Assembly (NCBI GenBank): GCA_013042035.1
Contig: JABDQX010000462.1
Location: 1-29,657 of the forward strand
Direction of reading: 5' to 3'
Source of the DNA: Gammaproteobacteria bacterium
GTDB lineage: Bacteria > Pseudomonadota > Gammaproteobacteria > HK1
DNA: 29,657 bases
Part shown: positions 7,771 to 24,553 of the stretch, piece after piece
Position numbering within the stretch: position 1 is the first letter of the stretch
Layout: every line of letters starts with the position of its first letter
Program-made: the position numbers and the translations under genes
Notes under the pieces: model-generated
Database searches by the model: none
Told to the model about the DNA's origin: nothing
What the model saw: only the letters and a program-made list of their open reading frames with translations

Positions 7771-7948
7771 TGATATTCACCTCTTAGCGTGTAAATTCAG
7801 GCCGAGTCGCGATTTTGGTAGTTGGACGGTAGCGCTTGCAACCGAGTCATAATGCTATGTTATTTGCTGAGAGATCAGAGATTCTTGATCCCGATGCGCT
7901 ATCTTGGTGCACAATTCGATAGGCATAATCTCTAAATTAAATCATGAA

Positions 7949-8554
7949 TTACTGATGTTCGCCACACCTATTTTGTGGCAATGGGGGTTCATGGCCCAGT
8001 GCTTCTTTGGTTTTTTTCGCCCATTCAATAAGATAGATAGTTCCACTAAGTAGTGTTGTTATAAAGACCAATATTACCAGAATGGTTTCCAGTCCGGACC
8101 ATGGAATGCCTGTCCCCTGAAAGAACATGACAGCCAACGCGAGCAATATTTGGGCTACTGTATTGATTTTACTAAATAAGTTCGGATGTACTTCCAGTCG
8201 TTGCGTTAAAGCCTGATAGGCTGCCGCCCAACCTACGATGATGGCATCGCGTAAAATAATCAATCCTACTAACCATAGGGGGATGAGCGACAACCAGCCG
8301 AGTGTAATGAACGTCGCTAGAAGGAGCGTTTTATCCGCTAGCGGATCCAATACGCTGCCCAAGCGGGTTTTCCACCCATAGCGTTTTGCCAGAAAACCAT
8401 CTACGCCATCGGAAAGCCCGGCGATGAAAAAGATTCCCAGCGCCAACAAATACTCGTCGAAGATAAGGAGAAGTACGACCGGTGGTGTTAGCAGGACCCG
8501 AAGTCCTGTGATTAAGTTTGGAATGTGATGTTTGTCCACAATCGAATACTGCAA
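7949..8554 (-). CDS. CDP-alcohol phosphatidyltransferase family protein (PgsA-like)
   Basis: IPNLITGLR and the signature SDGVDGFLAK...GSVLDPLADK (DxxDGxxAR-like...GxxLDxxxD); several TM helices. True start may be GTG at 8539. Confidence 0.92.
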   Translation of the reverse strand: MQYSIVDKHHIPNLITGLRVLLTPPVVLLLIFDEYLLALGIFFIAGLSDGVDGFLAKRYGWKTRLGSVLDPLADKTLLLATFITLGWLSLIPLWLVGLIILRDAIIVGWAAAYQALTQRLEVHPNLFSKINTVAQILLALAVMFFQGTGIPWSGLETILVILVFITTLLSGTIYLIEWAKKTKEALGHEPPLPQNRCGEHQ

Positions 8555-9921: not shown

Positions 9922-11204
9922 TTCATGTCAGTGAGTAATGTGTCGAGGTAATCGTTGAGTTCGGAACGTGTTAGTGTACGTTGAGAGACTTGTTCACGCA
10001 GGTGTTTTACGCCTACCTGTCCCGTTGTTACCTCATTTTCACCCAGGAGCAATGCGATCTGCGCTGCGCTGCGGTCGGCACGTTTGAGTTTTGCCTTGAA
10101 ACTTCCAGTCTGAGTATCTACGATTAACCGTAGATCCGGGAAACGATCGCGAAGTTCTTCGGCAAGTGAGTGACCAGTGCATCCGGCCTTTGCTCCAACG
10201 GCGACCAGATATGCGTGAGGTGTCGGTTTTGGAATGTTCCTTCCATCGCTTTTTTGCGAGTCTTCTTTAAGAAGCTCGACGAGGCGTTCAAGCCCAATGG
10301 CGCATCCGAGCGCTGGCGTCGAGGATTCTCCCATTTGACTTACCAGCGTATCGAAACGTCCACCAGCGCAAACTGCTGCTTGTGACCCCAGTCGATCTGT
10401 TGTCCATTCAAATACGGTGCCGGTGTAATAGTCAAGGCCGCGCACCAAGTATGGGTTTACAACGTAGTCGATTTTTACTGTATCCAGTATCGACCTTAGC
10501 GCTTCGAAATGCTCTTTTGATTCGCTATCTAAAAAATCCGAAATGCGAGGCGCATTCTCAATGATGGGCCAAAGTGCCGGATTTTTACTGTCAAGAATTC
10601 GCAGAGGATTCGTGTGCAAGCGCCGCCGACTGTCCTCATCCAGTCGGTCAAGTTGTGCGGAAAAATACTTAATCAGCTTTTCCCGGTAGATATCCCGCGC
10701 TGTTCCCGTGCACAAAGAATTTAGTTCCAGACGTAATCCTGATACACCCAGCTTGCGCCACAACCGAGTGATCATCATAAGAATTTCCGCATCAATACCG
10801 GGGTCCGGTATGCCAAATGCTTCCACGCCGATCTGATGAAACTGTCGATATCGTCCCTTTTGCGGGCGCTCATGGCGGAACATAGGGCCCATGTACCAAA
10901 GACGCTGAATCTGATTTCGTAGCAGATGATGTTGAATCCCCGCCCGTACACATCCGGCGGTTCCCTCAGGGCGTAGTGACAGACTCTCACCACTTCGATC
11001 CGTGAAAACGTACATCTCCTTTTCGACGATGTCTGTTACTTCGCCGATGGAGCGAGCAAAAAGCTCGGTTTTCTCCACAAGAGGAAACCGGATTTCTCCA
11101 TATCCGTAGGCTGAAAAAAGCGCACATGCGCTATCCTCAATGTATTGCCAATAGGGTGTGTCGGCGGGGAGGATATCGCTCATTCCACGAATCGCTTGTA
11201 TCAT
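9918..11204 (-). CDS. hisS: Histidine--tRNA ligase
   Basis: RGMSD, LRPEGTAG, FRHERPQKGRYRQFHQ, VRGLDYY and GLERL motifs. Confidence 0.99.
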   Translation of the reverse strand: MIQAIRGMSDILPADTPYWQYIEDSACALFSAYGYGEIRFPLVEKTELFARSIGEVTDIVEKEMYVFTDRSGESLSLRPEGTAGCVRAGIQHHLLRNQIQRLWYMGPMFRHERPQKGRYRQFHQIGVEAFGIPDPGIDAEILMMITRLWRKLGVSGLRLELNSLCTGTARDIYREKLIKYFSAQLDRLDEDSRRRLHTNPLRILDSKNPALWPIIENAPRISDFLDSESKEHFEALRSILDTVKIDYVVNPYLVRGLDYYTGTVFEWTTDRLGSQAAVCAGGRFDTLVSQMGESSTPALGCAIGLERLVELLKEDSQKSDGRNIPKPTPHAYLVAVGAKAGCTGHSLAEELRDRFPDLRLIVDTQTGSFKAKLKRADRSAAQIALLLGENEVTTGQVGVKHLREQVSQRTLTRSELNDYLDTLLTDMK

Positions 11205-11376
11205 CGTCTATGAGGTTTTTCCATTTAAGTTATTGTAGCAGTTCACTTTTTTATCGCTAGAACCCTTAAACAAAACGACTAAAAAATTCCCGTGGAGTAT
11301 TTTGGTTCCAGCAATGTCGGGTTGGGATCGATATCGTAGGACTTTCCGTTAATATCAATTTGCTTGGCAATGGTTA

Positions 11377-11401
11377 GCTGGCGAGGCAGCGCCTCGCCAG
11401 C
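11377..11401 (-). terminator. Perfect 11-bp GC-rich hairpin 9 nt downstream of the DsrC-paralog stop
   Basis: GCTGGCGAGGC-AGC-GCCTCGCCAGC. On the transcribed (minus) strand it is followed by TAACC, not a U-tract. Confidence 0.5.
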
Positions 11402-11410
11402 ACCCGTGCT

Positions 11411-11749
11411 TTAATAGCCGCCTTTTCTACGACTTTCCGGGATGCCTCCAATGCGTCCGGCTTGTTTGCTGGGATTCCCAGGAAAAAGGTCAAAGATCGC
11501 CTTTGTATCGATTTTTTCACCCCAAAGTTTACCAAGTTCTTTTACCATGGTACGCGTGTTAGGCTGGTTCTCGCGATTATTGAAGTATTCGTCCCGTAGA
11601 TATTTGATTACGTCCCAGTGCCGCTCAGTGAGTGTAATGCTTTCTTCTTCTGCGATTACATTGGCTACTTGTTCATTCCAGTCATCCAGATTGGCAAGAA
11701 AACCGGTTTCCGTTGTTTCCAATTCTTTTCCGTCAACTATAATTGCCAT
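11411..11749 (-). CDS. DsrC/TusE-family protein with no cysteine (regulatory RspA-like class)
   Basis: Aligns end to end with the DsrC at 17142 (GFLANL..W, HW.VI..LR.Y, LFP..P.KQA...G.P). It contains no Cys and ends ESRRKGGY. Confidence 0.9.
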   Translation of the reverse strand: MAIIVDGKELETTETGFLANLDDWNEQVANVIAEEESITLTERHWDVIKYLRDEYFNNRENQPNTRTMVKELGKLWGEKIDTKAIFDLFPGNPSKQAGRIGGIPESRRKGGY

Positions 11750-12013
11750 TTTCTTCTCCCGTTTCAGCTTTATTTCTGTGAGTAAATTTCAAGTTCTACT
11801 GTATCGTGAGGTGCCTGTCATTCACATTCACTGCCGAATCAACACGATGTGTTTGCGTGATTTCATTGTGTGAATTCCGGCGCATATGTTGCAGGTGTTC
11901 CTTCACATGACTTTCGAGTTTTGCGATTGTGATAAATGAGCAATCTTGATTATATTTGACAACGTCATTGCTCGTACATATACCTTCGTTTATTTACCGT
12001 AATCGTATTCGCT

Positions 12014-12703
12014 TTATGCTTTGGAAACAGGCGCGATACCTTTATGAGGGATGAACAATCCACACCCTAACTGGCGGTTTGGACCAATTCCATTTTGTTG
12101 TAGTTGCAATGATTCTTCTGGAGTAAGCTCTGCGATGAGGGCGCTTCGGGTATGAATCAGTGCGTTGGGTGTTGGAATAATGTGTGTTCGACCGCAAAGA
12201 ATTTTGCGGGGATTGATGCCTAGGTTCTGAAACTGATCTACAAGGTAATTGATGAATCGAGTTTCTTCGTCATGCTCCTCGGCTACTATGTATCGTGCGA
12301 ACAGAGTGCTGGAGGGAAGCAGTGGTTTTTCTTGGCCTTTTTCTACAACCAATGTATTCCCGCCGATAACGAGTGTAGTTCCTTCAAGGCGTTGTACATT
12401 TGATAACAGCGCTCTTGATAAGCGCAATACTAACCGAGTTCGGCGCGAAAGATGTAATAATTTATTATCGCTTTTTCCTGTTGGTCGTATCCAGCCATTT
12501 CCGGAATCGGCCACATGTATGCTGTGAATGCCAACACTGGGTTCATCGCTTACCCATGGCAGGATGGTCGTGATAGCTTCGGCGAGTAGATAAGCATGCT
12601 CTACCGGTAAGCTATGGCACCGAATTCGGTAGGCATAATCCAGCATTTGGCTTGAATTTTTCGACTGTGATCCGCTTTCTTCCGGTTCTTCTAACCAAAG
12701 CAT
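12014..12703 (-). CDS. Orphan Cas6/Cmx6-like RAMP protein
   Basis: C-terminal G-loop GIGPNRQLGCG (residues 205-215; GhGxxxxxGhG) followed by LFIP; N-terminal LPVEHAYLL..AI and GIHSIH motifs like type I-MYXAN Cas6; 229 aa. No other cas gene or array in the window. Confidence 0.78.
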   Translation of the reverse strand: MLWLEEPEESGSQSKNSSQMLDYAYRIRCHSLPVEHAYLLAEAITTILPWVSDEPSVGIHSIHVADSGNGWIRPTGKSDNKLLHLSRRTRLVLRLSRALLSNVQRLEGTTLVIGGNTLVVEKGQEKPLLPSSTLFARYIVAEEHDEETRFINYLVDQFQNLGINPRKILCGRTHIIPTPNALIHTRSALIAELTPEESLQLQQNGIGPNRQLGCGLFIPHKGIAPVSKA

Positions 12704-12912
12704 TATTTGGTACCTTGTTGTTTCTGATCCAATGCACCGATGAACGCGCTTTCCAATTGGTCTTCCCAGTTTCCGGGAGTATCGATGAATGGTGGCTTTA
12801 CGTCAATACGGAAGAAGCGTTCGGTTCTTGCCGCCTGTTTTACAGCTCTTAGTAAGTCCTTGAATGAGTTCAGATCGTGATGTTGCAATAGCAGTTCGCT
12901 TACGTGTAACAT
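12703..12912 (-). CDS. Small conserved hypothetical protein (69 aa)
   Basis: TAATG stop/start overlap with the Cas6-like gene; plausible RBS. The FFRIDVKPPF.DTP.NWED.LE segment resembles small proteins I recall from dsr-adjacent loci (not verified). Confidence 0.75.
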   Translation of the reverse strand: MLHVSELLLQHHDLNSFKDLLRAVKQAARTERFFRIDVKPPFIDTPGNWEDQLESAFIGALDQKQQGTK

Positions 12913-12952
12913 GCCTTTGATATCCTAATAGTTGTTGCCCGTGGCCGAGAGA

Positions 12953-12996
12953 GTATTTTAGAATAGTCTAAAATGCTAAATGTTGACTTGGATCAT
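12953..12996 (-). promoter_or_regulatory. Candidate FNR/CRP-family class II promoter with an overlapping inverted-repeat operator
   Basis: TTGAC-TTGG-ATCAT at 12983-12996 matches TTGAT-N4-ATCAA at 8/10. Placing its centre at -41.5 on the minus strand puts -12..-7 at 12960-12955, which reads TAAAAT. IR ATTTTAGA-ATAG-TCTAAAAT spans 12955-12974. Confidence 0.55.
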
Positions 12997-13127
12997 TTGA
13001 ATCTCTTCCCGACCCAAAGAGACTATGCCGCCTGTGTCGCTGGCAAAAAAAGCAGGGTATGGCAAGCGCCGGATTCCTCGCTGAACTTGTCGGAATTATC
13101 TTTAGAGTACCCATGAATTTTCGGATA

Positions 13128-13152
13128 TATAATTACTGTCTTTGTTAAGGAG
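13128..13152 (+). promoter_or_regulatory. Candidate -10 box and RBS for dsrA
   Basis: TATAAT at 13128-13133 and AAGGAG at 13147-13152. No good -35 at 17 nt, so it may be activator-dependent. Confidence 0.35.
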
Positions 13153-13157
13153 AGAGC

Positions 13158-14405
13158 GTGATGAAGAAACATGATACCCCGATGCTCGACCAGCTCCAGG
13201 ACGGTCCTTGGCCAAGCTTCATCAGCGGGATCAAGCGGCTGCGCGATGAACATCCCGAGCAGCGTATCAATGAGATGACCAATGACTTGCTTGGCCAGCT
13301 TCAGCACTCCTATGAGACCCGTAAAGGCTATTGGAAAGGGGGTACCCTAAGCGTTTATGGATATGGCGGTGGGATTATTCCCCGCTTTTCCGAAGTAGGA
13401 GATAAGTTTCCCAAGTCCAGAGAGTTTCATACCCTGAGAATCCAGCCGCCAGCTGGTAATTTCTACTCGACCGATATTCTGCGTCGGTTTGCAGATGACT
13501 GGGAAAAATATGGTTCCGGGTTGGTTACTTTCCATGGTCAGACCGGTAATATAATGTTCATTGGCGCTGATAGTGAGTCTACACAAGGCTTTTTCGATGA
13601 GGTCAATGAGTATGGTTGGGATCTTGGTGGAGCCGGTCCCTGTGTGCGCACGGGAATGTCTTGTGTCGGTTCTGCTCGTTGTGAGCAATCATGCTGCAAC
13701 GAACATAAGATTCATCGTCTGCTCATGAATAATTTTACCGATGATGTCCATCGGCCCGCCCTGCCATATAAATTCAAGTTTAAAGTCTCCGGTTGCCCCA
13801 ACGATTGCGTCAATTCCATTGAGCGGGCGGATTTTGCCGTGATTGGCACTTGGCGCGATGACATGAAAGTTGAGCAGGAAGAGGTCAAGGCAGCAGTTGC
13901 CAAGAAAGGGCGCAAATACATTATCGATAATGTGATTACTCGTTGTCCCACCAAGGCATTATCATTGAATGATGATGATACGCTTGATGTCGATAATCGC
14001 AATTGTGTGCGTTGTATGCATTGCCTGAATGTTATGCCGAAGGCATTGTCTCCGGGCGATGACAAAGGGATTACTCTTCTTGTCGGTGGTAAAAGAACGC
14101 TGAAGATTGGGGATTTGTTTGGTACAGTCGTGGTGCCATTTATGAAGCTTGATACCGAGGAAGATTACGAAGGGTTGGTCGAGCTTGCAGAGAATATGAT
14201 TGATTTCTTTGCCGAGAATGCTTTGGAGCACGAACGTACAGGAGAGATGATCGAGCGTATTGGTCTCGTTAATTTCCTGGAAGGTGTCGGAATTGAGGTG
14301 GATCCGAATATGTTGGATCACCCGCGAACGTGTTCTTATGTTCGGATGGATTCTTGGGATGAAGAAGCAGAGAAGTGGTTTGCCCGTAAGCAAGCGGCGG
14401 GATAA
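13158..14405 (+). CDS. dsrA: Dissimilatory sulfite reductase alpha subunit (reverse type)
   Basis: TPMLDQL..GPWPSF, HGQTG, siroheme-cluster motif CVGSARC...GCPNDC, ferredoxin CVRCMHC. Start is GTG 13158 or ATG 13161. Confidence 0.98.
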   Translation: MMKKHDTPMLDQLQDGPWPSFISGIKRLRDEHPEQRINEMTNDLLGQLQHSYETRKGYWKGGTLSVYGYGGGIIPRFSEVGDKFPKSREFHTLRIQPPAGNFYSTDILRRFADDWEKYGSGLVTFHGQTGNIMFIGADSESTQGFFDEVNEYGWDLGGAGPCVRTGMSCVGSARCEQSCCNEHKIHRLLMNNFTDDVHRPALPYKFKFKVSGCPNDCVNSIERADFAVIGTWRDDMKVEQEEVKAAVAKKGRKYIIDNVITRCPTKALSLNDDDTLDVDNRNCVRCMHCLNVMPKALSPGDDKGITLLVGGKRTLKIGDLFGTVVVPFMKLDTEEDYEGLVELAENMIDFFAENALEHERTGEMIERIGLVNFLEGVGIEVDPNMLDHPRTCSYVRMDSWDEEAEKWFARKQAAG

Positions 14406-14464
14406 AGTTTAGGTTTTCTGGTCCCTATGCCTGCTAATAGCTGGTTAGCATGGTAAACAGCACA

Positions 14465-14485
14465 GCTTCGGTCCAAGGCCGGAGC
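14465..14485 (+). other. 9-bp RNA hairpin in the dsrA-dsrB spacer
   Basis: GCTTCGGTC-CAA-GGCCGGAGC, 9 pairs including 2 G-U. Confidence 0.55.
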
Positions 14486-14667
14486 ATGCAGAGCATGGCG
14501 TTTTGTTTGACGCTTTGGAGGTTGTTGGTTGCGTCGATTATATATTGAAGGTTTCAAGCGGTTTTTATCGCTTTCTGGCGTGAAATATATTTTCCCCGCA
14601 CAGCGCTTCTAGGCTTATAGCAAGATTCAAAGTTTAACGATTTGAGTGTTTGATTGGGAGGTGGCCA

Positions 14668-15735
14668 ATGGAACATCGCCCGCCTATTGAGAGCGGTTGC
14701 CCAGACGGGTTCCAATATATGCATCCTACGATGCTGAAAAACTTCGGTCAGTGGAAGTATCACGAGGATATCCAGCCCGGCGTTTTGAAGCATGTTGCGA
14801 AAAGTGGGGATGCGGTTTGTACCGTAAAAGCCGGTACGCAACGCATTCTGGATCTATTTACGCTGCGAAAGCTCTGCGATATTGGGGATCAGTACGGCGA
14901 TGGATATGTACGATTCACAACTCGCAGCAATATTGAGTATATGGTAAACGATGAGGCCAAAGTTGGGCCTTTGGTCGAGGCGCTGGAGAAGGAAGGTTTT
15001 GTCGTTGGTGGAACTCGCAATTCCGTCGCCATGCTTTCGCATACTCAGGGCTGGTTACATTGCGATATCCCCGGTACGGATGCCTCCGGTGTGGTTAAAT
15101 CCATGATGGATGAGCTCATTGGTGAGTTTAAATCGTGGGAAATGCCCAATCGTGTCCATATCACTACTTCTTGCTGCCAGATTAACTGTGGCGGGCAGGG
15201 TGATATTGCAATCAACGTTCAGCACACGAAGCCGCCGAAGATCAACCATAATCTGGTAGCCAATGTCTGTGAAAGGCCATCAGTGGTTGCTCGTTGCCCG
15301 GTGGCGGCGATTCGCCCTGCAATGATTAATGGAAAGCCTTCCCTTGAGGTGGATGAGAAAAAGTGCATCTGTTGTGGTGCTTGTTATCCACCATGTCCAC
15401 CGATGCAGATTAATGATCCTGAGCATTCCAAGCTATCCATTTGGGTTGGGGGAAATCACTCCAATGCACGAAGTAATCCATCTTTCCAAAAGCTTGTAGC
15501 GTCCGGTATCCCCAATAATCCGCCGCGTTGGCCAGAGGCTACGGCTATTGTGAAAAAGATACTTGAAGTCTACAAAGAGGATGCGCGTGATTGGGAACGT
15601 ATCAATGATTGGATCGATCGTATTGGTTGGCCTAGATTTTTTGAGTTGACGGAATTGCCATTCACGAAGTTCCATATTGACAATTGGCGTGGCTCGCGGA
15701 AGAGCCTGAATGCATCGACTTACATTCGTTTCTAA
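14668..15735 (+). CDS. dsrB: Dissimilatory sulfite reductase beta subunit
   Basis: PIESGCPDG, HTQGWLHCD, CCQINCG, CICCGAC and PNNPPRWPE motifs. Start moved to ATG 14668 behind RBS GGAGG. Confidence 0.98.
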   Translation: MEHRPPIESGCPDGFQYMHPTMLKNFGQWKYHEDIQPGVLKHVAKSGDAVCTVKAGTQRILDLFTLRKLCDIGDQYGDGYVRFTTRSNIEYMVNDEAKVGPLVEALEKEGFVVGGTRNSVAMLSHTQGWLHCDIPGTDASGVVKSMMDELIGEFKSWEMPNRVHITTSCCQINCGGQGDIAINVQHTKPPKINHNLVANVCERPSVVARCPVAAIRPAMINGKPSLEVDEKKCICCGACYPPCPPMQINDPEHSKLSIWVGGNHSNARSNPSFQKLVASGIPNNPPRWPEATAIVKKILEVYKEDARDWERINDWIDRIGWPRFFELTELPFTKFHIDNWRGSRKSLNASTYIRF

Positions 15736-15799
15736 TTGTCGAAAAATTCTCGGCAGTTGAGTTGGATTGTCGGGTGGACGGCTATGGGAGAAACCAGGT

Positions 15800-16192
15800 A
15801 TGAAGTTTGGAATCCTAGTCAACGAAGGGCCCTATCAACATCAAGCTTCAGATAGTGCCTATCAGTTTACCAAGGCGGCGCTGGAAAAAGGGCACGAGGT
15901 TTTTCGAGTCTTTTTCTATCACGATGGTGTCAATAACGGGACAAGATTGGCTACGCCTCCTCAAGATGATCGGAATATTACGGTCAGATGGGCAGAGCTA
16001 AGTGATAAATACAATTTGGATTTGGTGATTTGCATTGCAGCTGCCCAGCGGCGCGGTATCGTTGATGAAGAAGAAATGAAGCGCCAAGGGAAAGACGCCA
16101 GTAACCTTGCGCCTGGCTTTCGGATTTCCGGGTTAGGGCAGCTTATTGAGGCAGGCATTCAGTCGGATCGATTAATTGTATTTGGCGATTAG
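15800..16192 (+). CDS. dsrE: Sulfurtransferase complex subunit DsrE
   Basis: EGPYQHQA, FFYHDGV, active-site VICIAAAQRRG and GLGQL. Start moved to ATG 15800, giving 130 aa. Confidence 0.97.
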   Translation: MKFGILVNEGPYQHQASDSAYQFTKAALEKGHEVFRVFFYHDGVNNGTRLATPPQDDRNITVRWAELSDKYNLDLVICIAAAQRRGIVDEEEMKRQGKDASNLAPGFRISGLGQLIEAGIQSDRLIVFGD

Positions 16193-16274
16193 GGTGTTCC
16201 GTCTGGAGAAGTTAAAAGCTGAAATGAGCTAAAAGGGTTCGATAAGTAGCTACGGAAGTTTGCAGCGAATAATG

Positions 16275-16307
16275 CGATATCCCAATTAGACGTGCTTGGG
16301 AATATCG
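16275..16307 (+). other. Hairpin in the expanded dsrE-dsrF spacer
   Basis: CGATATCCCAA-(10 nt)-TTGGG-A-ATATCG: 11 bp with one bulge. Confidence 0.45.
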
Positions 16308-16361
16308 GACCCTTTGTCCTTATGCGGCTGTATTCTAAGCACCTATTGAGGGGGTAAAATA

Positions 16362-16775
16362 ATGGAAGGTGGCGTAGTAAAGAAATTTTTGTACGTGAAT
16401 CGCCGGGCACCTTATGGGAGTATCTACGCTCTGGAATCTTTAGAAGTGGTCCTCATTGGCGCGGCTTTCGAGCAGGATGTAAGTCTGCTGTTCGTTGATG
16501 ATGGGGTATATCAGCTGAAGAAAGGCCAGGACACTAGCGGCGTTGAGATGAAAAACTTTTCGCCAACCTACAATGCCCTCGGCGATTATGATGTCAACAA
16601 GATCTATGTAGATCAAGAGTCCCTCGAAAAGCGGAATCTGACGACGGATGATCTGATGGCGTTGACCTACGAAGATGAAGATGATGACTACGCGGAGAAA
16701 CCGTCGATACGCGTTATTAGTCGTGACGAGGTGGCTGACTTGATGGAAGAGCAGGACGTCGTCTTATCATTTTAG
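16362..16775 (+). CDS. dsrF: Sulfurtransferase complex subunit DsrF
   Basis: KKFLYVNRRAPYG, LFVDDGVYQL and KNFSPTY motifs. Confidence 0.97.
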   Translation: MEGGVVKKFLYVNRRAPYGSIYALESLEVVLIGAAFEQDVSLLFVDDGVYQLKKGQDTSGVEMKNFSPTYNALGDYDVNKIYVDQESLEKRNLTTDDLMALTYEDEDDDYAEKPSIRVISRDEVADLMEEQDVVLSF

Positions 16776-16786
16776 GAGAGCTGGAT

Positions 16787-17095
16787 ATGGGTATGCTGCA
16801 TGTGGTGAATAAGTCTCCGTTTGAGAAAACTTCACTGGATAGTTGTCTCGTATATGCAAAAGAGGGTGCTGCTATCCTACTCATTGAAGACGCTGTCTAC
16901 GCCGCGTTAAAGGATACGGCTGTTGCGGACAAAGTTAGGGCTGCACTCAAAAAGTGTAAGGTATATGCTTTGGAACCCGACATCAAGGCCCGGGGCATGG
17001 AGGTAGCGAAGGTTATCGACGGTATTGATGTTGTTAATTATGGGGGGTTTGTCGATCTGGCTACCGCCTATGATAACGTGCATTCCTGGGTTTAA
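16787..17095 (+). CDS. dsrH: Sulfurtransferase complex subunit DsrH
   Basis: MLHVVNKSPF, Cys20, LLIEDAVY and YGGFVDL...SW motifs. Confidence 0.97.
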   Translation: MGMLHVVNKSPFEKTSLDSCLVYAKEGAAILLIEDAVYAALKDTAVADKVRAALKKCKVYALEPDIKARGMEVAKVIDGIDVVNYGGFVDLATAYDNVHSWV

Positions 17096-17141
17096 CGTTG
17101 TTTGTAGTGGTATCTTTATTAGTTAAAGGGGTAAGGCATAA

Positions 17142-17474
17142 ATGGCTATCGAAGTAAACGGTAAAATGTATGAAACGGATGAGGAAGGTTATCTTGCAAA
17201 TCTGAATGAGTGGACCAAGGAAATAGGTGAGGCCATGGCTGTAGCAGATAATGCGGATCTTTCTGAGAGTCACTGGGAAGTGATTAATTTCTTGCGTGAG
17301 TACTACGATGAGTATCAGATTGCGCCGGCGGTTCGGGTTCTTACGAAAGCTATAGGGAAAAAATTCGGTAAAGACAAAGGGAATAGTAAGTATCTCTATG
17401 AGTTGTTTCCCTATGGTCCTGCAAAGCAAGCTTGTAAGTACGCTGGTTTGCCTAAACCTACAGGTTGCGTGTAA
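17142..17474 (+). CDS. dsrC: Sulfur carrier DsrC (authentic, CysB-X10-CysA)
   Basis: C-terminus PAKQACKYAGLPKPTGCV with two Cys separated by 10 residues. Confidence 0.98.
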   Translation: MAIEVNGKMYETDEEGYLANLNEWTKEIGEAMAVADNADLSESHWEVINFLREYYDEYQIAPAVRVLTKAIGKKFGKDKGNSKYLYELFPYGPAKQACKYAGLPKPTGCV

Positions 17475-17507
17475 TTAAATCGGTGATATGGCCGATATAG
17501 GGAATTG

Positions 17508-17537
17508 TAGGCCGGAGCGTTATTATGCTTCGGTCTG
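17508..17537 (+). terminator. Hairpin downstream of dsrC (possible attenuator or stabiliser)
   Basis: TAGGCCGGAGC-GTTATTAT-GCTTCGGTCTG, 11 pairs with wobbles; a T-run starts about 7 nt downstream. Confidence 0.5.
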
Positions 17538-17585
17538 CAGGGTATTTTTTGTTTGGTGGTAAGGTGTAAGGGGAGAACCGGGAAG

Positions 17586-18377
17586 ATGTCGGCTCTAACG
17601 ATTGCATACATCCTTTTGTTCTATGGAGCAGCCTTGGTTTTTGTAATCGGGTTGTTTTATAGGATTTTCAAGTATGCGACGACCCCAGCACCGTTGAAAA
17701 TCCCTACAACTCCGGCACCGCTTAATCAGAGAGGGGTTGTTTTTCGATTGTTTTGGGAGGTTGTGTTTTTTAGGAGTCTTTTTCGTAGTGCCAAATGGAT
17801 ATGGTTGTTTGGATGGATGTTTCATTTAGCGTTGTTTGTGATCGTGCTTCGGCATCTACGATATTTCACGGATCCGGTTTGGGCTCCAATTGAACTAATT
17901 CAACCCTTTGGTATTTATGCTGGTTTTGTGATGTCGGTAGGTCTTATTGGCCTGTGGGTGCGGAGATTTTCCGTAGCGCGCGTACGTTATGTATCCGTAA
18001 TTTCAGATCATTTTATGCTTGTGCTTCTGTTAGCTATTGTCGTGAGCGGGCTGGCGATGAAGTATGTTGTGCATACCGATATTGTCGCATTTAAAACGTT
18101 TATTTTAGGTATTATGAGTTTTCAATGGGTTTCGCTTCCAGGTACTGGTGCAGGGGAAGCCCCGAATGTTGCGCTTTTGATTCATCTTTTCCTCGTGGCA
18201 GTGTTGATGCTTATATTCCCTTTCAGCAAGCTTATGCATGCCCCGGGATTATTTTTCTGTCCCACTCGAAATCAAATAGACAATCCTCGTGCGGAGCGTG
18301 GTCTGAGATCCCATGAAAGTAGGCATGTTGCGCAATGGGCGCTTGATAGTGAATCGGTAGGTAAGTCCGGTGTCTGA
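17586..18377 (+). CDS. dsrM: DsrM, NarI-like membrane b-type cytochrome
   Basis: PAPLKIPTTPAP, WMFH, LRHLRY, HLFLV and PFSKLMH (heme b His ligands). Start moved to ATG 17586. Confidence 0.96.
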   Translation: MSALTIAYILLFYGAALVFVIGLFYRIFKYATTPAPLKIPTTPAPLNQRGVVFRLFWEVVFFRSLFRSAKWIWLFGWMFHLALFVIVLRHLRYFTDPVWAPIELIQPFGIYAGFVMSVGLIGLWVRRFSVARVRYVSVISDHFMLVLLLAIVVSGLAMKYVVHTDIVAFKTFILGIMSFQWVSLPGTGAGEAPNVALLIHLFLVAVLMLIFPFSKLMHAPGLFFCPTRNQIDNPRAERGLRSHESRHVAQWALDSESVGKSGV

Positions 18378-18409
18378 AAGTGAATATCGTTTGAGGGGGA
18401 TATCATCAA

Positions 18410-19903
18410 ATGGCTAAATTCGAAACGCCGGCACTCAAGGAATATCTGGAGATGCCTGCCTCCCTTAAAAAAGATTCCATGGTTCATAGTGGACCGTTTG
18501 TTGCTGCGCCTCAACACCAAGAACCATTGGGTTTTCCAGGTGAGTTGGTGGATAACTGGCAGGATGTTGCTATCGAGAAGATGGGTGAGTTGCTAGGGAA
18601 GTATCGCTCTCTCCGCGTTTTCCTGGATTCCTGCGTTAAGTGTGGTGCTTGTACCGATAAGTGTCATTATTTCCTAGGGACATCTGATCCGAATAATATG
18701 CCTGTTGCAAGACAGGATCTGTTCCGTAGCGTCTATCGTCGTTACTTCACCTTAGGGGGGAAGCTTTTTCCCAAGCTTGTTGGTGCTGTTAAACTTGATG
18801 AGGGCGTTTTGGATCAATGGTGGAGCTACTATCATCAGTGTTCGCAATGTCGACGTTGTTCGGTTTTTTGCCCGTATGGAATTGATACGGCTGAAATCTC
18901 AATGGCTGCGCGAGAGATTATGGCCTCGGTTGGGAAAGGGCAAAAGTATAGCAATGAAATTATCGCTAAGGTTTTTAAAATAGGTAATAATTTAGGGCTT
19001 CCCGAACCGGCGTTGGTCGATACCATGGAGGGGTTGGAAGAAGATGTGAAGGACGAGACCGGGGTAGCTGTGCGTTATCCTGTGGACGTGGAAGGCGCGG
19101 ATGTTTTGTTAGTTACGCCTTCAGCTGATTTTTTTGCTGAACCCCATGTGGATGGCTTGATAGGGTATGGGAAGGTTTTTCATCAAGCAGGTATTAGCTG
19201 GACGGTAAGTTCTTATGCTTCGGAAGCCGCGAATTTCGGTATGTTCGTTGGTAGCTACGAGAACATGCGAAAGATAGCTCTGAGGATTCGGAAGGCTGCT
19301 CTTGACCTTGGGGTTAAGCGTATAGTGTTCGGTGAGTGTGGTCACGCATGGCGTGTCGCATATAGTTTTTTGAATACTTTAGCCGGTCCCTTTGATTTTC
19401 TTGATTCCAAGTACCCGGTTCCTCAGCACATCATTGAAGTAACCCATGATCTTATCAAGCGAGGTGCGTTAACCCTTGATAAATCTGCTAATGATGATAA
19501 GCGGGTTACGTTCCATGATTCCTGCAATGTGGCCAGAGCATCGCGCATGGGTGATATGCCGGGGGGGCAGTTCATCCTACCTAGGGAAGTGATAAAGGCA
19601 TGTTGTAGTCATTTTTTTGATATGGCTTCGGACACTATACACGATAGCACTTTTTGTTGTGGCGGTGGCGGTGGTCTTTTAACGGATGATCTCATGGAGT
19701 TGCGCGTAAAAGGGGCAATGCCAAGGATGCAAGCCTTAAAAGACGTTACTGAGAGACATCAGGTAACCCATCTTGCGGCTATTTGTGCAATTTGTAAGAG
19801 TCAATTTTCGAAAGTCCTTCCCTACTATGGGTTTACCATGGATCAGGTTGTCAGTGTTCATCAGCTGGTAAGCGAAGCTATTGTGTTAGGAGCGAAGGAC
19901 TAG
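18410..19903 (+). CDS. dsrK: DsrK, HdrD-like Fe-S protein
   Basis: CVKCGACTDKC, CSQCRRCSVFC, GECGH, HDSCN, CCGGGGG and CAIC motifs. Confidence 0.97.
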   Translation: MAKFETPALKEYLEMPASLKKDSMVHSGPFVAAPQHQEPLGFPGELVDNWQDVAIEKMGELLGKYRSLRVFLDSCVKCGACTDKCHYFLGTSDPNNMPVARQDLFRSVYRRYFTLGGKLFPKLVGAVKLDEGVLDQWWSYYHQCSQCRRCSVFCPYGIDTAEISMAAREIMASVGKGQKYSNEIIAKVFKIGNNLGLPEPALVDTMEGLEEDVKDETGVAVRYPVDVEGADVLLVTPSADFFAEPHVDGLIGYGKVFHQAGISWTVSSYASEAANFGMFVGSYENMRKIALRIRKAALDLGVKRIVFGECGHAWRVAYSFLNTLAGPFDFLDSKYPVPQHIIEVTHDLIKRGALTLDKSANDDKRVTFHDSCNVARASRMGDMPGGQFILPREVIKACCSHFFDMASDTIHDSTFCCGGGGGLLTDDLMELRVKGAMPRMQALKDVTERHQVTHLAAICAICKSQFSKVLPYYGFTMDQVVSVHQLVSEAIVLGAKD

Positions 19904-19978
19904 AGCGAATTCGTTTCCCTTAGCAAAATTTCTTGTTGAATTAAATAGATTATTGATTTTAGGTTAGGAGATTCCATC

Positions 19979-21937
19979 ATGGCGACTCCGTGGAGCAAAA
20001 CGTACAGGGCAGAAAACCATACTTTTCGGAAGTTCAAAGAGGGAGAGAGTACATGGTCCAATTGGGAGGCTAGCATTTTTGTAGCCGATACTTCCCATAA
20101 ATGTCCCACGTATGTTCATCGTACCCCGCCTTGCCAGGGGAGTTGTCCTGCAGGTGAGGATATCCGTGGATGGTTGCAGATCGTGCGGGGGATAGAAAAA
20201 CCACCTGAGGGTATGAGTTGGCAGGAATATGCGTTTCGTCGTTCCACGAATGCCAATCCGTTTCCAGCACAGATGGGGCGTGTTTGTCCCGCGCCATGTC
20301 AAGATGGCTGTAACCGCAACGAAGTGGAAGATTTTGTACATATTAATGCTATTGAGCAGTATCTTGGTGATTATGCAAACGAGCAGGGTTTCCGCTTTGA
20401 ATGTCCGGAACAGGTAAGCGGTAAAAAAATCGCTATTATTGGTGGTGGGCCCGCAGGGATGACGGCTGCGTATCAATTGCGGCGCAAAGGCCATGGAAGT
20501 ACCATCTTTGATGATCATGCAGAGTTGGGTGGCATGATGCGTTACGGTATTCCAGGGTATCGTGTGCCGCGTGATAATCTCGGTAAGGAAATCCAACGGA
20601 TCATTGATATGGGTAGTATTGAGGTCCGTACAGAAATAAAAGTGGGTAAGGACATTACCATTGAAGAGCTTGAAAATCAGTTTGATGCTATCTTGTGGAC
20701 TATTGGTTGCCAAAATGGTCGTCCGTTGCCAGTTGCTGGATCCGATGCGCCGAATTGTATTACCGGCGTTCAATTTCTAGACGCTTTCAACTCGGGACGT
20801 ATGCAGGCTGCTGCGAAGCGCGTTGTGTGTGTTGGTGGGGGTGATACGTCCATTGATGTGGTTTCCGTGGCACGTCGTATGGGGCACATTCAGACTTTCC
20901 ATCCCAACGAACGAGCAGAGGATTTTGTGCATGGTTTTGTGGCCCATGATGCGGCTACTGCTGCGAAAGCGGAAGGTGCCGAAGTTACATTGACCTCCTT
21001 GTTCAAGAAGGAGGAGATGACTGCAGCTGAGCATGAAGTTCAAGATGCGCTGACTGAAGGTGTTACGATTCTGGATGGGGTTATGCCGGTAGAAGTGTTA
21101 TTGAATGATGCTGGTAGAGCTCGTGCGTTGAAGATGGCTAAGTGTACTATTGACGCTAAAGGTATTCCTACACCCGTTGAAGGCACTGGGTTTGAACTAG
21201 AGTGCGATCTGGTTGTATCGGCTATCGGTCAGGGTGGTGAACTGAGTGGTCTTGAAGTGCTTAATAATGGTCGTGGTTTTATCAATGCGGATAATCACTA
21301 CCGAGCATCGGATCGGGCAGGGCATTTTGTAGCTGGCGACATTGTACGTCCTCACCTTTTAACAACAGCTATTGGTCAAGCATCCATAGCTGCTCAGAGT
21401 ATTGATAATTATCTTAAAGGCGATGAATTCGGTAAGCGTCCGAAAGTTGATGTACACCATTTCAATTTATTGAATAAGTTGCGCGAAAGAGGGCTTGAGC
21501 CGGAAGAATATAAATCAGTACAGGACTGGGGAACATGCGAGGCCGACTGGGCGATTCATAATTTCGAAGACCGTTCTGCCCATGAAATTGTGCATGCCGA
21601 GGAGTTATTTCTAGGGCATTTTGGGTATGTACCGCGCTATGTTCGTAGTGAAGAAGTCCCTACAGCAGAAGCGGTACTTGGGCACTTTAAAGAGCGGTTA
21701 ATAGGGTTGGGCGAGGAAGAAACGATCGCAGAGGCTAAGCGCTGCATGAGTTGCGGTATGTGTTTTGAGTGTGACAATTGCGTTATCTTTTGCCCGCAGG
21801 ATGCCGTATTTCGTGTCAAAAAAGACAAAAGTGCCATAGGGCGCTATGTGGATACGGATTACAATCGGTGTGTAGGATGTCACATTTGTGCCGATGTTTG
21901 TCCTACAGGGTATATTGATATGGGGCTTGGTGAGTGA
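19979..21937 (+). CDS. dsrL: DsrL, Fe-S flavoprotein NAD(P)H oxidoreductase
   Basis: PCQGSCPAG, CPAPCQ..C, GGGPAG, GGGDTS and C-terminal ferredoxin CMSCGMCFECDNC/CVGCHICADVC motifs. Confidence 0.97.
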   Translation: MATPWSKTYRAENHTFRKFKEGESTWSNWEASIFVADTSHKCPTYVHRTPPCQGSCPAGEDIRGWLQIVRGIEKPPEGMSWQEYAFRRSTNANPFPAQMGRVCPAPCQDGCNRNEVEDFVHINAIEQYLGDYANEQGFRFECPEQVSGKKIAIIGGGPAGMTAAYQLRRKGHGSTIFDDHAELGGMMRYGIPGYRVPRDNLGKEIQRIIDMGSIEVRTEIKVGKDITIEELENQFDAILWTIGCQNGRPLPVAGSDAPNCITGVQFLDAFNSGRMQAAAKRVVCVGGGDTSIDVVSVARRMGHIQTFHPNERAEDFVHGFVAHDAATAAKAEGAEVTLTSLFKKEEMTAAEHEVQDALTEGVTILDGVMPVEVLLNDAGRARALKMAKCTIDAKGIPTPVEGTGFELECDLVVSAIGQGGELSGLEVLNNGRGFINADNHYRASDRAGHFVAGDIVRPHLLTTAIGQASIAAQSIDNYLKGDEFGKRPKVDVHHFNLLNKLRERGLEPEEYKSVQDWGTCEADWAIHNFEDRSAHEIVHAEELFLGHFGYVPRYVRSEEVPTAEAVLGHFKERLIGLGEEETIAEAKRCMSCGMCFECDNCVIFCPQDAVFRVKKDKSAIGRYVDTDYNRCVGCHICADVCPTGYIDMGLGE

Positions 21938-22338
21938 TTCGAGTGTTTGCCATGCGTAAGTTTTGGCTTTTTTTCGTGTTAGCTGTCGTGAGTACGGCAG
22001 TGAGTGGGTTTGTCTTTGCGGGGCAGGAAAATGCACTGCTCTCTGGTGGTGCCGTATCCAAGTGGAAGGGTGATGCGTGTGTTGAGGCAACACCGGTTAT
22101 GCGTAGAGAGCATATGGATTTTCTGCTTAAGCAGCGTGACGAAACTATGCGTCAAGGGATTCGCAATGGGCCTTATAGCTTAAAGGGATGTATAGAGTGT
22201 CATGCGCAGGAAGATGAGCAGGGGCAGGAGATTCCGGTGAACGCTTCAGGGCAGTTCTGTCAGGAATGTCACCAATATGTTGCTGTGAGCATTGATTGTT
22301 TTCAATGTCATGTAGCTACCTCGGAACCCAGGAAATGA
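21934..22338 (+). CDS. dsrJ: DsrJ, periplasmic triheme cytochrome c
   Basis: Signal/anchor sequence; CIECH, CQECH and CFQCH; MRREHM. Start is GTG 21934 or ATG 21952. Confidence 0.95.
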   Translation: MIRVFAMRKFWLFFVLAVVSTAVSGFVFAGQENALLSGGAVSKWKGDACVEATPVMRREHMDFLLKQRDETMRQGIRNGPYSLKGCIECHAQEDEQGQEIPVNASGQFCQECHQYVAVSIDCFQCHVATSEPRK

Positions 22339-22407
22339 CTAGGAAACAAGCGGATTTTGTGTCGTATCATGGCTGGGGGTTATATCTCTAAGTGATATAT
22401 CCTCTTA

Positions 22408-23205
22408 ATGAGTAGTTTGATGAGTGATAACCTGACAAGTGTTAAACAAAGTAAGTTAACTGTGTCAAGCAATAATGTTGACCGGCGCGGCTTTTTAAGT
22501 AGCGTGAGTGCAATAGCGGCTGTTACAGTTGCTCCTGGCGTTGCTTTGGTGGGGTTTGCGGAAGCGCGCTCTGTGGACAAAGAACCGGTGACCGACGCTC
22601 GGCGCTGGGGGATGTTGATAGACTCAAGCCGATGTGTTCGAGGTTGTGATGCATGCGTCTCGGCATGTGGGAAAGAAAATGGTCTTGCCAGTTATAGCAG
22701 GCCGCAGACGGATGTTCAGTGGGTTAGGAAGGTTACGGTTCGTGATACTCGAACCAGACGGATAACATCGCTACCGGTTATGTGCCAGCATTGTCAGGAT
22801 CCGCCTTGTGTTGATGTTTGCCCCACAGGTGCTTCGTTTCGGCGTACGGATGGGATCGTGCTTGTAGACCGGCATATCTGTATTGGATGTCGTTATTGCA
22901 TGATGGCTTGTCCTTACAAGGCGCGATCATTTGCCCATGAGTCGGCAAATAATCAAAAGTCGCATGCGCCTCGTGGGAAAGGAACTGTTGAGGCTTGCAC
23001 GTTCTGCGTACATCGTGTTGACGAGAATTCTGATCGAACGCCTGCTTGTGTTGAGGCTTGTGCCGCCCAAGGGCATGGTGCCATGGTGTTCGGTGATCTG
23101 AATGATCCTAATAGCCAGCTCTCCAAAGACCTCGATAAGTATTCCAGTACGGAGCTTCGAGGAGATATGGGGTTGAATCCGGGTGTGCGATATCGAAATA
23201 TCTAG
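22408..23205 (+). CDS. dsrO: DsrO, Tat-exported ferredoxin-like protein
   Basis: RRGFL twin-arginine motif; CQHCQDPPC, CIGCRYCMMACP and CTFC motifs. Confidence 0.96.
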   Translation: MSSLMSDNLTSVKQSKLTVSSNNVDRRGFLSSVSAIAAVTVAPGVALVGFAEARSVDKEPVTDARRWGMLIDSSRCVRGCDACVSACGKENGLASYSRPQTDVQWVRKVTVRDTRTRRITSLPVMCQHCQDPPCVDVCPTGASFRRTDGIVLVDRHICIGCRYCMMACPYKARSFAHESANNQKSHAPRGKGTVEACTFCVHRVDENSDRTPACVEACAAQGHGAMVFGDLNDPNSQLSKDLDKYSSTELRGDMGLNPGVRYRNI

Positions 23206-23290
23206 TTATAATCGCCTAAATATGCGTTTTATTCCCTATAAGCAGACAAAGATTTTGTCTTTGTACCGACCTTGTAGTCCGTAGGGCCAC

Positions 23291-24553
23291 ATGATGAAAA
23301 TTGTTGATTATGTTGAAATAGAAGGCCGTAGCATAGGCTACTGGGTTTTGTTAGCTATCCTAGGCGCGGGAGCCGCAGCTGGCTTGGGCGCAAGCTATTA
23401 TATGGAGCATCATGGTCACTGGGTAACAGGGATGTCGAATCAGATCGTGTGGGGAACTCCTCATGTTTTTGCCGTATTCCTTATTGTTGCTGCATCGGGA
23501 GCATTGAATGTTGCTTCGATTGCGTCTGTCTTTAACCGTGTAATGTATAAGCCGCTCTCGCGTTTTTCGGGACTTTTGGCTATCGCGCTGTTAATCGGTG
23601 GACTTGCGGTGCTCGTTCTTGATTTGGGGCGCCCTGATCGACTGGTAGTAGCGATGACTAGTTACAATTTTAAGTCGATCTTCACGTGGAATATTTTTCT
23701 ATATACGGGCTTTGTTGTTATCGTTGCCGCATACCTGTGGATGATGATGGAGCGGCGTATGAACCGGTATAGCAAGCCGGTAGGAATGTTTGCGTTCGTT
23801 TGGCGTTTGGCACTGACTACAGGTACCGGTTCTATATTTGGGTTCTTGGTAGCGCGGCAAGCCTTTGATGCTGCAGTTATGGGCCCGATGTTTGTAGTGA
23901 TGTCATTTTCTTATGGTCTGGCGTTTTTTATTCTGCTGTTGATGTGGACCTACCACATGTCAGGCAGAACGCTTGGCGATGCGATTTTGCTGCGGTTGAA
24001 AAATTTGCTTGGTGTGTTTATAGCAGGGGTTCTATACTTTGTGTTAGCGTACCATCTCACTAATCTGTATGCCGCTGAGCATCGCGGGGTGGAACAGTTT
24101 ATTTTGGTGAGTGGTGGGATATACACCCAGGCATTTTGGATCGGAGTGGTGATGCTTGGGTCCATAGTACCGTTCCTCATCTTTCATTTGCCATCTACGG
24201 AAAAATCCCGGTTGGGGATTGCTGTTGGTTCAGTGCTGGTGATTCTTGGCGGGATTGCCCATATATTTGTGATTATCGTTGGGGGACAGGCATACCCGTT
24301 AGTGATTTTCCCAGGGAAGGAAATTATCGAAAGTAGCTTTTTCGATGGTCAAGTGGCTTCCTATGCTCCAAGCTTGCCAGAGGTTATTTTGGGAGTAAGC
24401 GGAATAGCCATCGCCTTGCTTTTGGTTAGCATTGCTATAAAAGTCCTTCGTTTTCTGCCGGATAGTCTTGCCGATGATGTGGTATTTTCTGTTGGCAGTG
24501 ATGCTGTCCTCGGAGAAGAAGAGAAGGCCGCAGCGTCGTCTGCTGGCGCGTGA
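23291..24553 (+). CDS. dsrP: DsrP, NrfD-family membrane protein
   Basis: TGMSNQIVWG.PH, DLGRPDRL and SIFTWN motifs; about 10 TM helices. Confidence 0.96.
   Translation: MMKIVDYVEIEGRSIGYWVLLAILGAGAAAGLGASYYMEHHGHWVTGMSNQIVWGTPHVFAVFLIVAASGALNVASIASVFNRVMYKPLSRFSGLLAIALLIGGLAVLVLDLGRPDRLVVAMTSYNFKSIFTWNIFLYTGFVVIVAAYLWMMMERRMNRYSKPVGMFAFVWRLALTTGTGSIFGFLVARQAFDAAVMGPMFVVMSFSYGLAFFILLLMWTYHMSGRTLGDAILLRLKNLLGVFIAGVLYFVLAYHLTNLYAAEHRGVEQFILVSGGIYTQAFWIGVVMLGSIVPFLIFHLPSTEKSRLGIAVGSVLVILGGIAHIFVIIVGGQAYPLVIFPGKEIIESSFFDGQVASYAPSLPEVILGVSGIAIALLLVSIAIKVLRFLPDSLADDVVFSVGSDAVLGEEEKAAASSAGA

Follow-up and report, generated by a model that had tools for sequence, protein, structure and literature searches.

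A protein of the Cas6 family, the enzyme that normally cuts CRISPR (clustered regularly interspaced short palindromic repeat) RNA, is encoded beside the dsr operon on a contig of a gammaproteobacterial metagenome-assembled genome (MAG; assembly GCA_013042035.1, contig JABDQX010000462.1), and its gene is a near-universal companion of dsrAB in gammaproteobacterial sulfur oxidizers. The window analyzed here is that one entire 29.7-kb contig; its source MAG measures 2.18 Mb and is 81% complete. The nearest relatives of the window's proteins carry the labels Candidatus Kentron/Kentrum, sulfur-oxidizing symbionts of Kentrophoros ciliates. That the oxidative Dsr system recruited a Cas6-family protein out of CRISPR seems to us very probable. 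The reading that we prefer is that a Cas6b/Cmx6-family RAMP protein was taken out of CRISPR-Cas and would now be a fixed accessory of oxidative (reverse) Dsr, that it most likely still binds, and perhaps cuts, structured RNA, and that its partner would be a small protein encoded directly upstream. As a whole, this reading of an ex-CRISPR Cas6 as an RNA-acting accessory of Dsr with its small protein has, in our estimate, a probability of about 0.5.

The gene lies in a minus-strand unit whose first open reading frame (ORF), of 69 amino acids (aa), stands head-to-head with dsrA across 245 nucleotides (nt), dsrA starting at 13158 on the plus strand. In window coordinates, the features of the locus are as follows.

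12703..12912, minus strand: small protein of 69 aa, with which the unit begins in this genome (ORF).
12014..12703, minus strand: Cas6/Cmx6-family protein of 229 aa, a member of a dsr-linked, CRISPR-independent clade (ORF, PF09559, TIGR02807).
11750..12013, minus strand: spacer of 264 nt from the Cas6-like gene to the DsrC paralog, with a putative promoter for the paralog.
11411..11749, minus strand: cysteine-free DsrC/TusE-family paralog (RspA type) of 112 aa (PF04358, TIGR03342).
11378..11400, minus strand: GC-rich hairpin of 9 bp directly past the stop codon of the paralog, terminator-like and without a T run (sequence reading).
12913..13157, no strand assigned: divergent control region of 245 nt common to the unit and dsrA (ORF borders).
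13158..24553, plus strand: oxidative-type dsr operon dsrABEFHCMKLJOP, divergent partner of the unit (profile matches).

The initial annotation of this locus had described an orphan Cas6-like gene that is translationally coupled to the 69-aa ORF, is followed by a DsrC paralog lacking cysteine, shares a 245-nt divergent region with dsrA, and has no CRISPR array or other cas gene nearby. All of this stands: the stop codon of the 69-aa ORF overlaps the start codon of the 229-aa ORF in TAATG at 12703, the divergent region spans 12913-13157, the 112-aa protein is a DsrC-family member with zero cysteines, and no CRISPR array was found on the 29.7-kb contig and no cas gene among its other ORFs. The glycine-rich loop GIGPNRQLGCG (residues 205-215) and the histidine H36 in LPVEHAY, both picked out in that annotation, are likewise present in the 229-aa sequence.

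Sequence, fold, histidine, and glycine-rich loop all mark the 229-aa protein as a genuine RAMP protein of the Cas6 family. It matches PF09559 far beyond chance (E = 5e-58, 196.6 bits against a cutoff of 26.7) and TIGR02807 (Cas6/Cmx6) at 112.2 bits against a cutoff of 98.85, and it is the sole PF09559 match in its genome. Its profile found chain B of PDB entry 8fcj (8fcj_B) at an E value of 3.8e-25. The double RRM/RAMP fold that the initial annotation anticipated is what AlphaFold2 (AF2) predicts, in the double-ferredoxin form of Cas6 (predicted local distance difference test [pLDDT] 85; predicted template-modeling score [pTM] 0.81). The best matches of this model in a Foldseek search against PDB were 8fcu_B and 8fcj_B, the Cas6 of a type I-B CRISPR-associated transposon (CAST), with template-modeling (TM) scores of 0.75 to 0.80, and nearly all of the 37 PDB matches at E <= 0.001 were Cas6, Cas6e, Cas6f, or other Cas6 structures.

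The residues held in common with CRISPR-linked Cmx6 are H36, R94, R137, E147, and the glycine-rich loop. H36 sits in a DH motif at the start of helix 1 and aligns with the histidine of three cyanobacterial array-linked proteins. The loop, GIGPNRQLGCGLF, occupies residues 205-217; all array-linked Cmx6 proteins compared have the same residues at its G, C, and F positions, which 230 to 260 of 265 members of the dsr-linked clade retain, with G205, G207, G213, and G215 each present in at least 254. In the same 265 sequences H36 is kept in 250, R94 in 263, and R137 in 254, and the core residues common with array-linked Cmx6 are altogether retained in 94 to 99%. Since this RNA-facing core is under strong purifying selection, we infer that RNA binding has most likely been retained; on the evidence of the conserved core, we put the chances that the protein works by binding or cutting RNA at roughly even. 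Other features set the clade apart, namely a ~14-aa insert (IHxIHVADSGNGWxRP), a C-terminal PHK motif, and the clade-specific invariant residues H60, H63, S67, N69, G70, W71, R73, R88, K167, R186, H220, and K221.

We asked how closely the gene follows dsr. Relatives were sought in one genome per species, and at least 541 species have one; locus counts given here and below refer to the best 80 loci of relatives. The order of small protein followed by Cas6-like protein is nearly invariant in these loci, and RspA comes after the Cas6-like gene in 71 of 80. In 61 of 80, dsrAB is divergent from the module, and many of the remaining loci are on contigs that end before dsrA. The module order persists down to 31 to 33% identity. 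For a phyletic view we drew 401 genomes from the class, with even representation of its families and a completeness of 90% or more. PF09559 was matched in 126 of them and dsrA in 125, both together in 120, PF09559 only in 6, and dsrA only in 5. A dsr-type Cas6 is present in 124 of the 401 genomes, at least 121 of which have dsrA, while 120 of the 125 dsrA-positive genomes carry the gene. Of the six genomes with PF09559 and no dsrA match, two carry Cmx6 of the true CRISPR type, accompanied by arrays and cas3/8/7/5; in a third, a fragment of dsrA lies where a contig ends, in two more it is the module that lies at such an end, and the sixth, 1.4 Mb in size and 100% complete, truly has no dsrA. 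Related genomes are non-independent samples, and the pattern spans ~96 genera.

In one family of small genomes (1.4 to 2.2 Mb), represented by three genera, the head-to-head partner of the Cas6-like gene is the RNase III operon, rnc-era-recO, in place of dsrA; the complete genome without dsrA belongs to this family.

L098, 7436-8101; L103, 5955-6620; L104, 6152-6817: rnc-linked dsr-type Cas6 genes (neighborhood).

Neither the small protein nor dsr adjoins the gene at these loci, and in one of them an RspA-like gene lies ~1.7 kb off. The rnc neighborhood is compatible with an RNA role.

Members of the family that are linked to arrays were found on cyanobacterial plasmids, in cas6-cas3-cas8-cas7-cas5-cas4/1-cas2 loci. 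A tree separates five array-linked Cmx6 proteins from 155 others with a split support of 99, and the large dsr-linked clade is not beside arrays, an arrangement that the initial annotation had raised as a question. As it had stated, genes annotated as type I-MYXAN Cas6/Cmx6 do occur next to dsrA. Cas1 is missing from 28 of 40 genomes with the dsr-type gene, including a complete 2.2-Mb chromosome. A CRISPR-Cas system of type I-C (Cas8c, Cas7, Cas4, Cas1c, and Cas5d) is present in the genome that the window comes from, spread over short contigs.

Contigs C359 (1-2985), C444 (419-1063), and C17 (2951-3232): type I-C cas genes and array of the window's own genome (profile matches and array finding).

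The window protein might then be an ordinary Cas6 acting in trans, processing CRISPR RNA (crRNA) from arrays at other places in the genome. The array on C17 lends this some substance, as its 36-nt repeat, longer than the 32 nt of I-C repeats, has a Cas6-type look, terminating in the inferred direction in ATTGAGAC right after a short hairpin, and the genome is only 81% complete. However, the cas genes of this genome are of type I-C with Cas5d, and since Cas5d processes the crRNA of type I-C systems (PMC11096372), the system has no need for a Cas6. Searched with up to 3 mismatches allowed, the window gave no match to the C17 repeat, and no second Cas6-family match was found in the window's genome, an 81%-complete MAG. 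Given also that most carrier genomes examined are without Cas1, that the gene follows dsrA and not arrays, and that array-linked Cmx6 falls in a separate clade, we consider processing of crRNA in trans highly improbable.

The small protein is well conserved. A homolog of the 69-aa protein, at 41 to 73% identity, is encoded 5' of the Cas6-like gene in ~75 of 80 loci, with D37, P40, T45, P46, W49, and E54 invariant. The AF2 model has three helices (pLDDT 88.8). A search with this fold gave zero matches in PDB, and in AFDB it returned only the protein's own unnamed family, so that a known fold was rejected; PF22295 (DUF6967) was matched in one distant relative. The TAATG overlap is not kept in other Kentron species, where the two genes are separated by gaps of 10 to 107 nt.

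Beyond this pair, the relatives have a larger operon. A gene for a TauD-family dioxygenase lies 5' of the small ORF in 64 of ~80 loci, in 51 a gene for a helical protein of ~240 aa separates the small ORF from the Cas6-like gene, and a two-domain rhodanese gene is found 3' of RspA in 25. The TauD-like gene divergent from dsrA was named dsrQ by Lenk et al. 2012, according to PMC7596348 and PMC9371685, where DsrQ is speculated to release sulfite from sulfonates; neither of these two papers mentions the genes behind dsrQ. In a 1.1-Mb genome, the entire unit of dsrQ, small protein, Cas6-like protein, and RspA stands next to dsrA. The helical protein was considered as a second RAMP and rejected, its look-alikes being TPR-like at low score and the protein being absent from the window's genome. 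In some lineages, a second 2-oxoglutarate (2OG)-Fe(II) oxygenase, of the PKHD/PiuC type, follows directly downstream, encoded on the strand opposite to the module (L004, 11687-12361, minus strand; L086, 9667-10239, minus strand).

The initial annotation had treated the window's genes as a three-gene unit. Three minus-strand genes are indeed present, but they are a trimmed form of the larger conserved operon, whose first gene already has the name dsrQ (PMC7596348), and a single transcript is not required, as the 264-nt gap probably holds a separate promoter. The gene dsrQ is missing from the window's unit, its sole homolog (54% identity) lying beside unrelated genes on C146, a contig of 2.3 kb. 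In two other Kentron species RspA does not adjoin the module either, while the Kentron relatives keep the order of small protein and then Cas6-like protein, as in the window. Since dsrQ, the helical protein, and RspA are variably missing in Kentron, we take the small protein and the Cas6-like protein to be the constant core beside dsrA.

An alternative view places the driver elsewhere in this operon. The dsrQ-side operon may be an oxygen- or sulfonate-linked control or supply module in which sensing of O2 or release of sulfite by DsrQ gives a signal that the Cas6-like protein and RspA relay to dsr expression, an account that overlaps the one preferred here and differs in what drives it. The frequency of dsrQ in front of the small ORF, the sulfite release speculated for it (PMC7596348, PMC9371685), the second 2OG-Fe(II) hydroxylase near some loci, and two conserved palindromes between dsrA and dsrQ (see below) would all fit, but dsrQ does not adjoin the unit in the window, its homolog being on a separate contig, and the three rnc-linked genera have no dsrQ nearby. 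We therefore consider a dsrQ-driven module unlikely.

The third gene of the window's unit belongs to a family named DsrC/TusE/RspA, in which RspA denotes members without the C-terminal cysteines (PMC8477390). The 112-aa protein matches PF04358 (DsrC; E = 2e-32) and also TIGR03342, both over the full length, and shares 40% identity with the true DsrC encoded in the window (17142-17474). It is without any cysteine, and both arm cysteines are substituted, the arm reading QAGRIGGIPESRRKGGY as against QACKYAGLPKPTGCV in the window's DsrC. Since the two-cysteine arm is absent, we filed the protein as RspA type and not as DsrC. The flexible arm itself is retained. Its new terminus, PESRRKGGY (window 11411-11460), consists of the same nine residues in L004, L005, L085, L086, and L094, and is identical though the Cas6-like proteins of these lineages share only ~30 to 60% identity. 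The C-terminal arm of DsrC enters DsrAB, and the DsrC of Allochromatium vinosum reportedly binds dsr promoter DNA. We propose that the cysteine-free paralog would be a separate regulatory partner, probably binding DNA or DsrAB.

The spacer between the Cas6-like gene and rspA contains, in one lineage, a conserved TTGGAT-N17-TATCAT (or TATTAT), which resembles a sigma-70 promoter. This lineage comprises L041, L014, L018, L044, L032, and others, under the titles Sulfuricaulis, Muproteobacteria, Acidiferrobacterales, and Gammaproteobacteria. The conserved k-mers of this spacer were set aside, as they are the sigma-70-like promoter of that one lineage. Since rspA has its own sigma-70-like promoter in a related lineage, the 264-nt spacer of the window probably also holds an rspA promoter and separates two transcripts.

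The divergent region differs between lineages. In the window, a block at 12940-13030 is conserved among six Kentron-clade loci and contains the inverted pair ATAGTCT (13019-13025) and AGACTAT (12964-12970) together with a GATTCAAATGATC box; TTGAAT-N18-GACTAT is a possible dsrA promoter. In metatranscriptomes of related symbionts, the contigs that extend over dsrA have 13046 as their first position in two runs; two further runs place it at 12938 and 12956. These contigs cover dsrAB well and the module thinly, with coverage at 12175-12347, at 11596-11752, and at the junction of the small ORF and the Cas6-like gene (12643-12795), which one contig spans. At least 55 other loci have instead an element between dsrA and dsrQ, present once per locus and in constant orientation.

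L004, 8472-8579; L005, 7623-7730; and ~55 other loci: two-palindrome element of ~100 nt (conservation).

The element consists of an AGTCTAG box, an ACCC-N3-GGGT palindrome ~30 nt further on, and a TATCCC-N4-GGGATA palindrome after another ~34 nt; it is missing from the window's divergent region (12913-13157). The AGTCTA box could be the -10 element of dsrA, reading TAGACT on the dsrA strand. An RNA hairpin pair was considered for the element and rejected, RNAalifold backing only 3 pairs and the breaks in pairing being symmetric between strands. Since pairing breaks equally on both strands, operator DNA is the likelier reading, and RspA would be a candidate binder.

We return to what the Cas6-like protein might do. 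Its action, in the reading we prefer, would be post-transcriptional and directed at messages of the sulfur-oxidation regulon, whether those of the dsr operon or those of its own dsrQ-side operon. The initial annotation had gone further and proposed processing or stabilization of the dsr mRNA at intergenic hairpins; we found no evidence pointing to this in the window's dsr region or in the 80 loci. Several observations weigh against an RNA-acting role, or narrow it. Between 11000 and 18000 of the window, which includes dsr intergenic gaps, a search for repeated hairpins gave only short chance pairs, and no Rfam match was found in the window. The pattern of a hairpin plus handle gave only 2 chance matches near the 80 modules. 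The structure predicted for the dsrA leader across five Kentron-clade loci is a weak consensus that shows little covariation (3 pairs are compensatory in the 5 sequences), and the pairs of the ~100-nt element break symmetrically between strands (CA 7, UG 5), as in a DNA palindrome. Metatranscriptome coverage of the module is thin and unstranded and might include DNA, and contigs of this kind cannot reveal processing sites. Cleavage may be dispensable, as 13 of 265 clade members have Tyr or Asn in place of H36 and the CAST Cas6 of known structure has Asn there. The clade-specific insert is modeled at low confidence by AF2. Finally, the 100%-complete genome of 1.4 Mb keeps the Cas6-like gene without dsrA, and some loci have no dsr nearby; because of that genome and these loci, and of the rnc linkage in that genome's family, a role confined to dsr mRNA is unlikely. 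A relic CRISPR repeat was also considered as the target and rejected, both the C17 repeat (at <=3 mismatches in the window) and the hairpin-plus-handle pattern having led to the results given above.

The main rival to an RNA-acting role is that the Cas6 fold now serves, without any RNA role, as a scaffold for binding proteins, holding the small protein, the DsrC paralog, or DsrAB/DsrEFH, for example to gate the access of DsrC to the reductase or to aid complex assembly. A new binding surface is suggested by the insert and by the many invariant residues specific to the clade, a small acidic protein of unassigned fold family is the protein's constant companion, and the paralog keeps an invariant arm (PESRRKGGY) at the position of the arm with which DsrC enters DsrAB; that no RNA target was found, either at 11000-18000 of the window or in the 80 modules, points the same way. 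However, the residues held in common with array-linked Cmx6 are the histidine, two arginines, and the glycine-rich loop, and their retention at 94 to 99% is hard to explain without nucleic acid. Furthermore, the rnc-linked gene of three genera has neither the small protein nor dsr adjoining it. We hold the scaffold to be a possible but distinctly less probable explanation than an RNA-acting Cas6. Tentative too is the more specific proposal that the lone Cas6 and its partner of 60 to 70 aa form an RNA-processing or RNA-holding switch at the core of reverse-Dsr sulfur oxidation across Gammaproteobacteria, which we would not yet expect to be correct.

Compared with known systems, the window protein is closest to Cas6b/Cmx6 of type I-B ("Myxan"), as represented by Synechocystis sp. 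PCC 6714 and by chain B of the CAST structures 8FCJ and 8FCU. It has in common with these a family assignment above cutoffs, the fold, a length of ~220 aa, the DH motif (Asn in CAST), R94, R137, E147, and a GxGxxRxxGCGxF loop. The identity is only 25 to 28% (28% for the Synechocystis 6714 protein), and the window protein differs in belonging to a separate clade, in the ~14-aa insert with its invariant His, Ser, Asn, Gly, Trp, and Arg, and in the C-terminal PHK. Cas6b of Synechocystis 6714 is a Cascade subunit whose coexpression with the array yields a 71-nt crRNA, and it is placed at the 3' hairpin of the crRNA, a region not modeled in that study (PMC11096372). In contrast, the window locus has no cas3, cas8, cas7, cas5, or array nearby, and the loci of relatives have dsrQ, the small protein, and RspA as neighbors and linkage to dsrAB. 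In most relatives the Cas6-like gene is in the same divergent unit as dsrQ, two or three genes past it, whereas in the window it is not. The DsrC paralog resembles the DsrC/TusE/RspA family in its full-length match and lost cysteines and differs from it by having a terminus of its own. The CAST systems (type I-B and I-F Cascades in Tn7-like transposons) are similar in that a Cas component was likewise retained for its RNA-handling fold outside defense; CAST retains crRNA, an array, and the rest of Cascade, whereas the dsr-linked case is a lone Cas6 with no array and with metabolic neighbors. No description of a dsr-linked Cas6-like gene was found in the literature, in a search that most subscription journals lay outside.

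The dsr operon of the window is identified by matches of its proteins to TIGR02064 (dsrA, 619 bits) and TIGR02066 (dsrB, 534 bits), and it also matches DsrEFH, DsrC, DsrM, DsrK, DsrL-like, and DsrJ, followed by DsrO-like and NrfD/DsrP-like proteins. Some of its gaps (14406-14730 and 16193-16361) are unusually long: dsrA and dsrB are separated by ~245 to 320 nt, depending on the dsrB start, as against ~85 to 135 nt in other lineages, and dsrE and dsrF by ~170 nt. Metatranscriptome depth drops over 14398-14654, in the region of the dsrA-dsrB gap. Directly 3' of the dsrP-like gene is a 165-aa ORF without a Pfam match (24569-25066, plus strand). Other genes of the contig are nuoA-F, a pgsA-like phosphatidyltransferase gene, and genes for a TPR protein, hisS, and pyruvate:ferredoxin oxidoreductase. 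Between the nuo operon and the phosphatidyltransferase gene lies a 653-aa ORF, also without a Pfam match (5809-7770, minus strand), around which AT skew is strong (-0.33 to -0.38 over 6001-8000).

These results bear on both CRISPR annotation and sulfur metabolism. The pipeline label "type I-MYXAN CRISPR-associated protein Cas6/Cmx6" is misleading in sulfur oxidizers and inflates counts of CRISPR systems. The Cas6-like gene accompanies dsrAB with about the fidelity of known dsr genes and is still present in symbiont-sized genomes of 1.1 Mb; given this faithful tracking and retention, it is likely a missing component or regulator of the Dsr pathway, which holds a central place in the sulfur cycle and in chemosynthetic symbioses. 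It has been proposed previously that the dsr operon is controlled post-transcriptionally. If the protein does handle RNA, it would offer a direct handle on such control and a clean natural case of Cas6 reuse outside immunity and mobile elements. If, moreover, it acts as an RNA switch, it would be the first Cas protein domesticated for the control of an energy-metabolism pathway.

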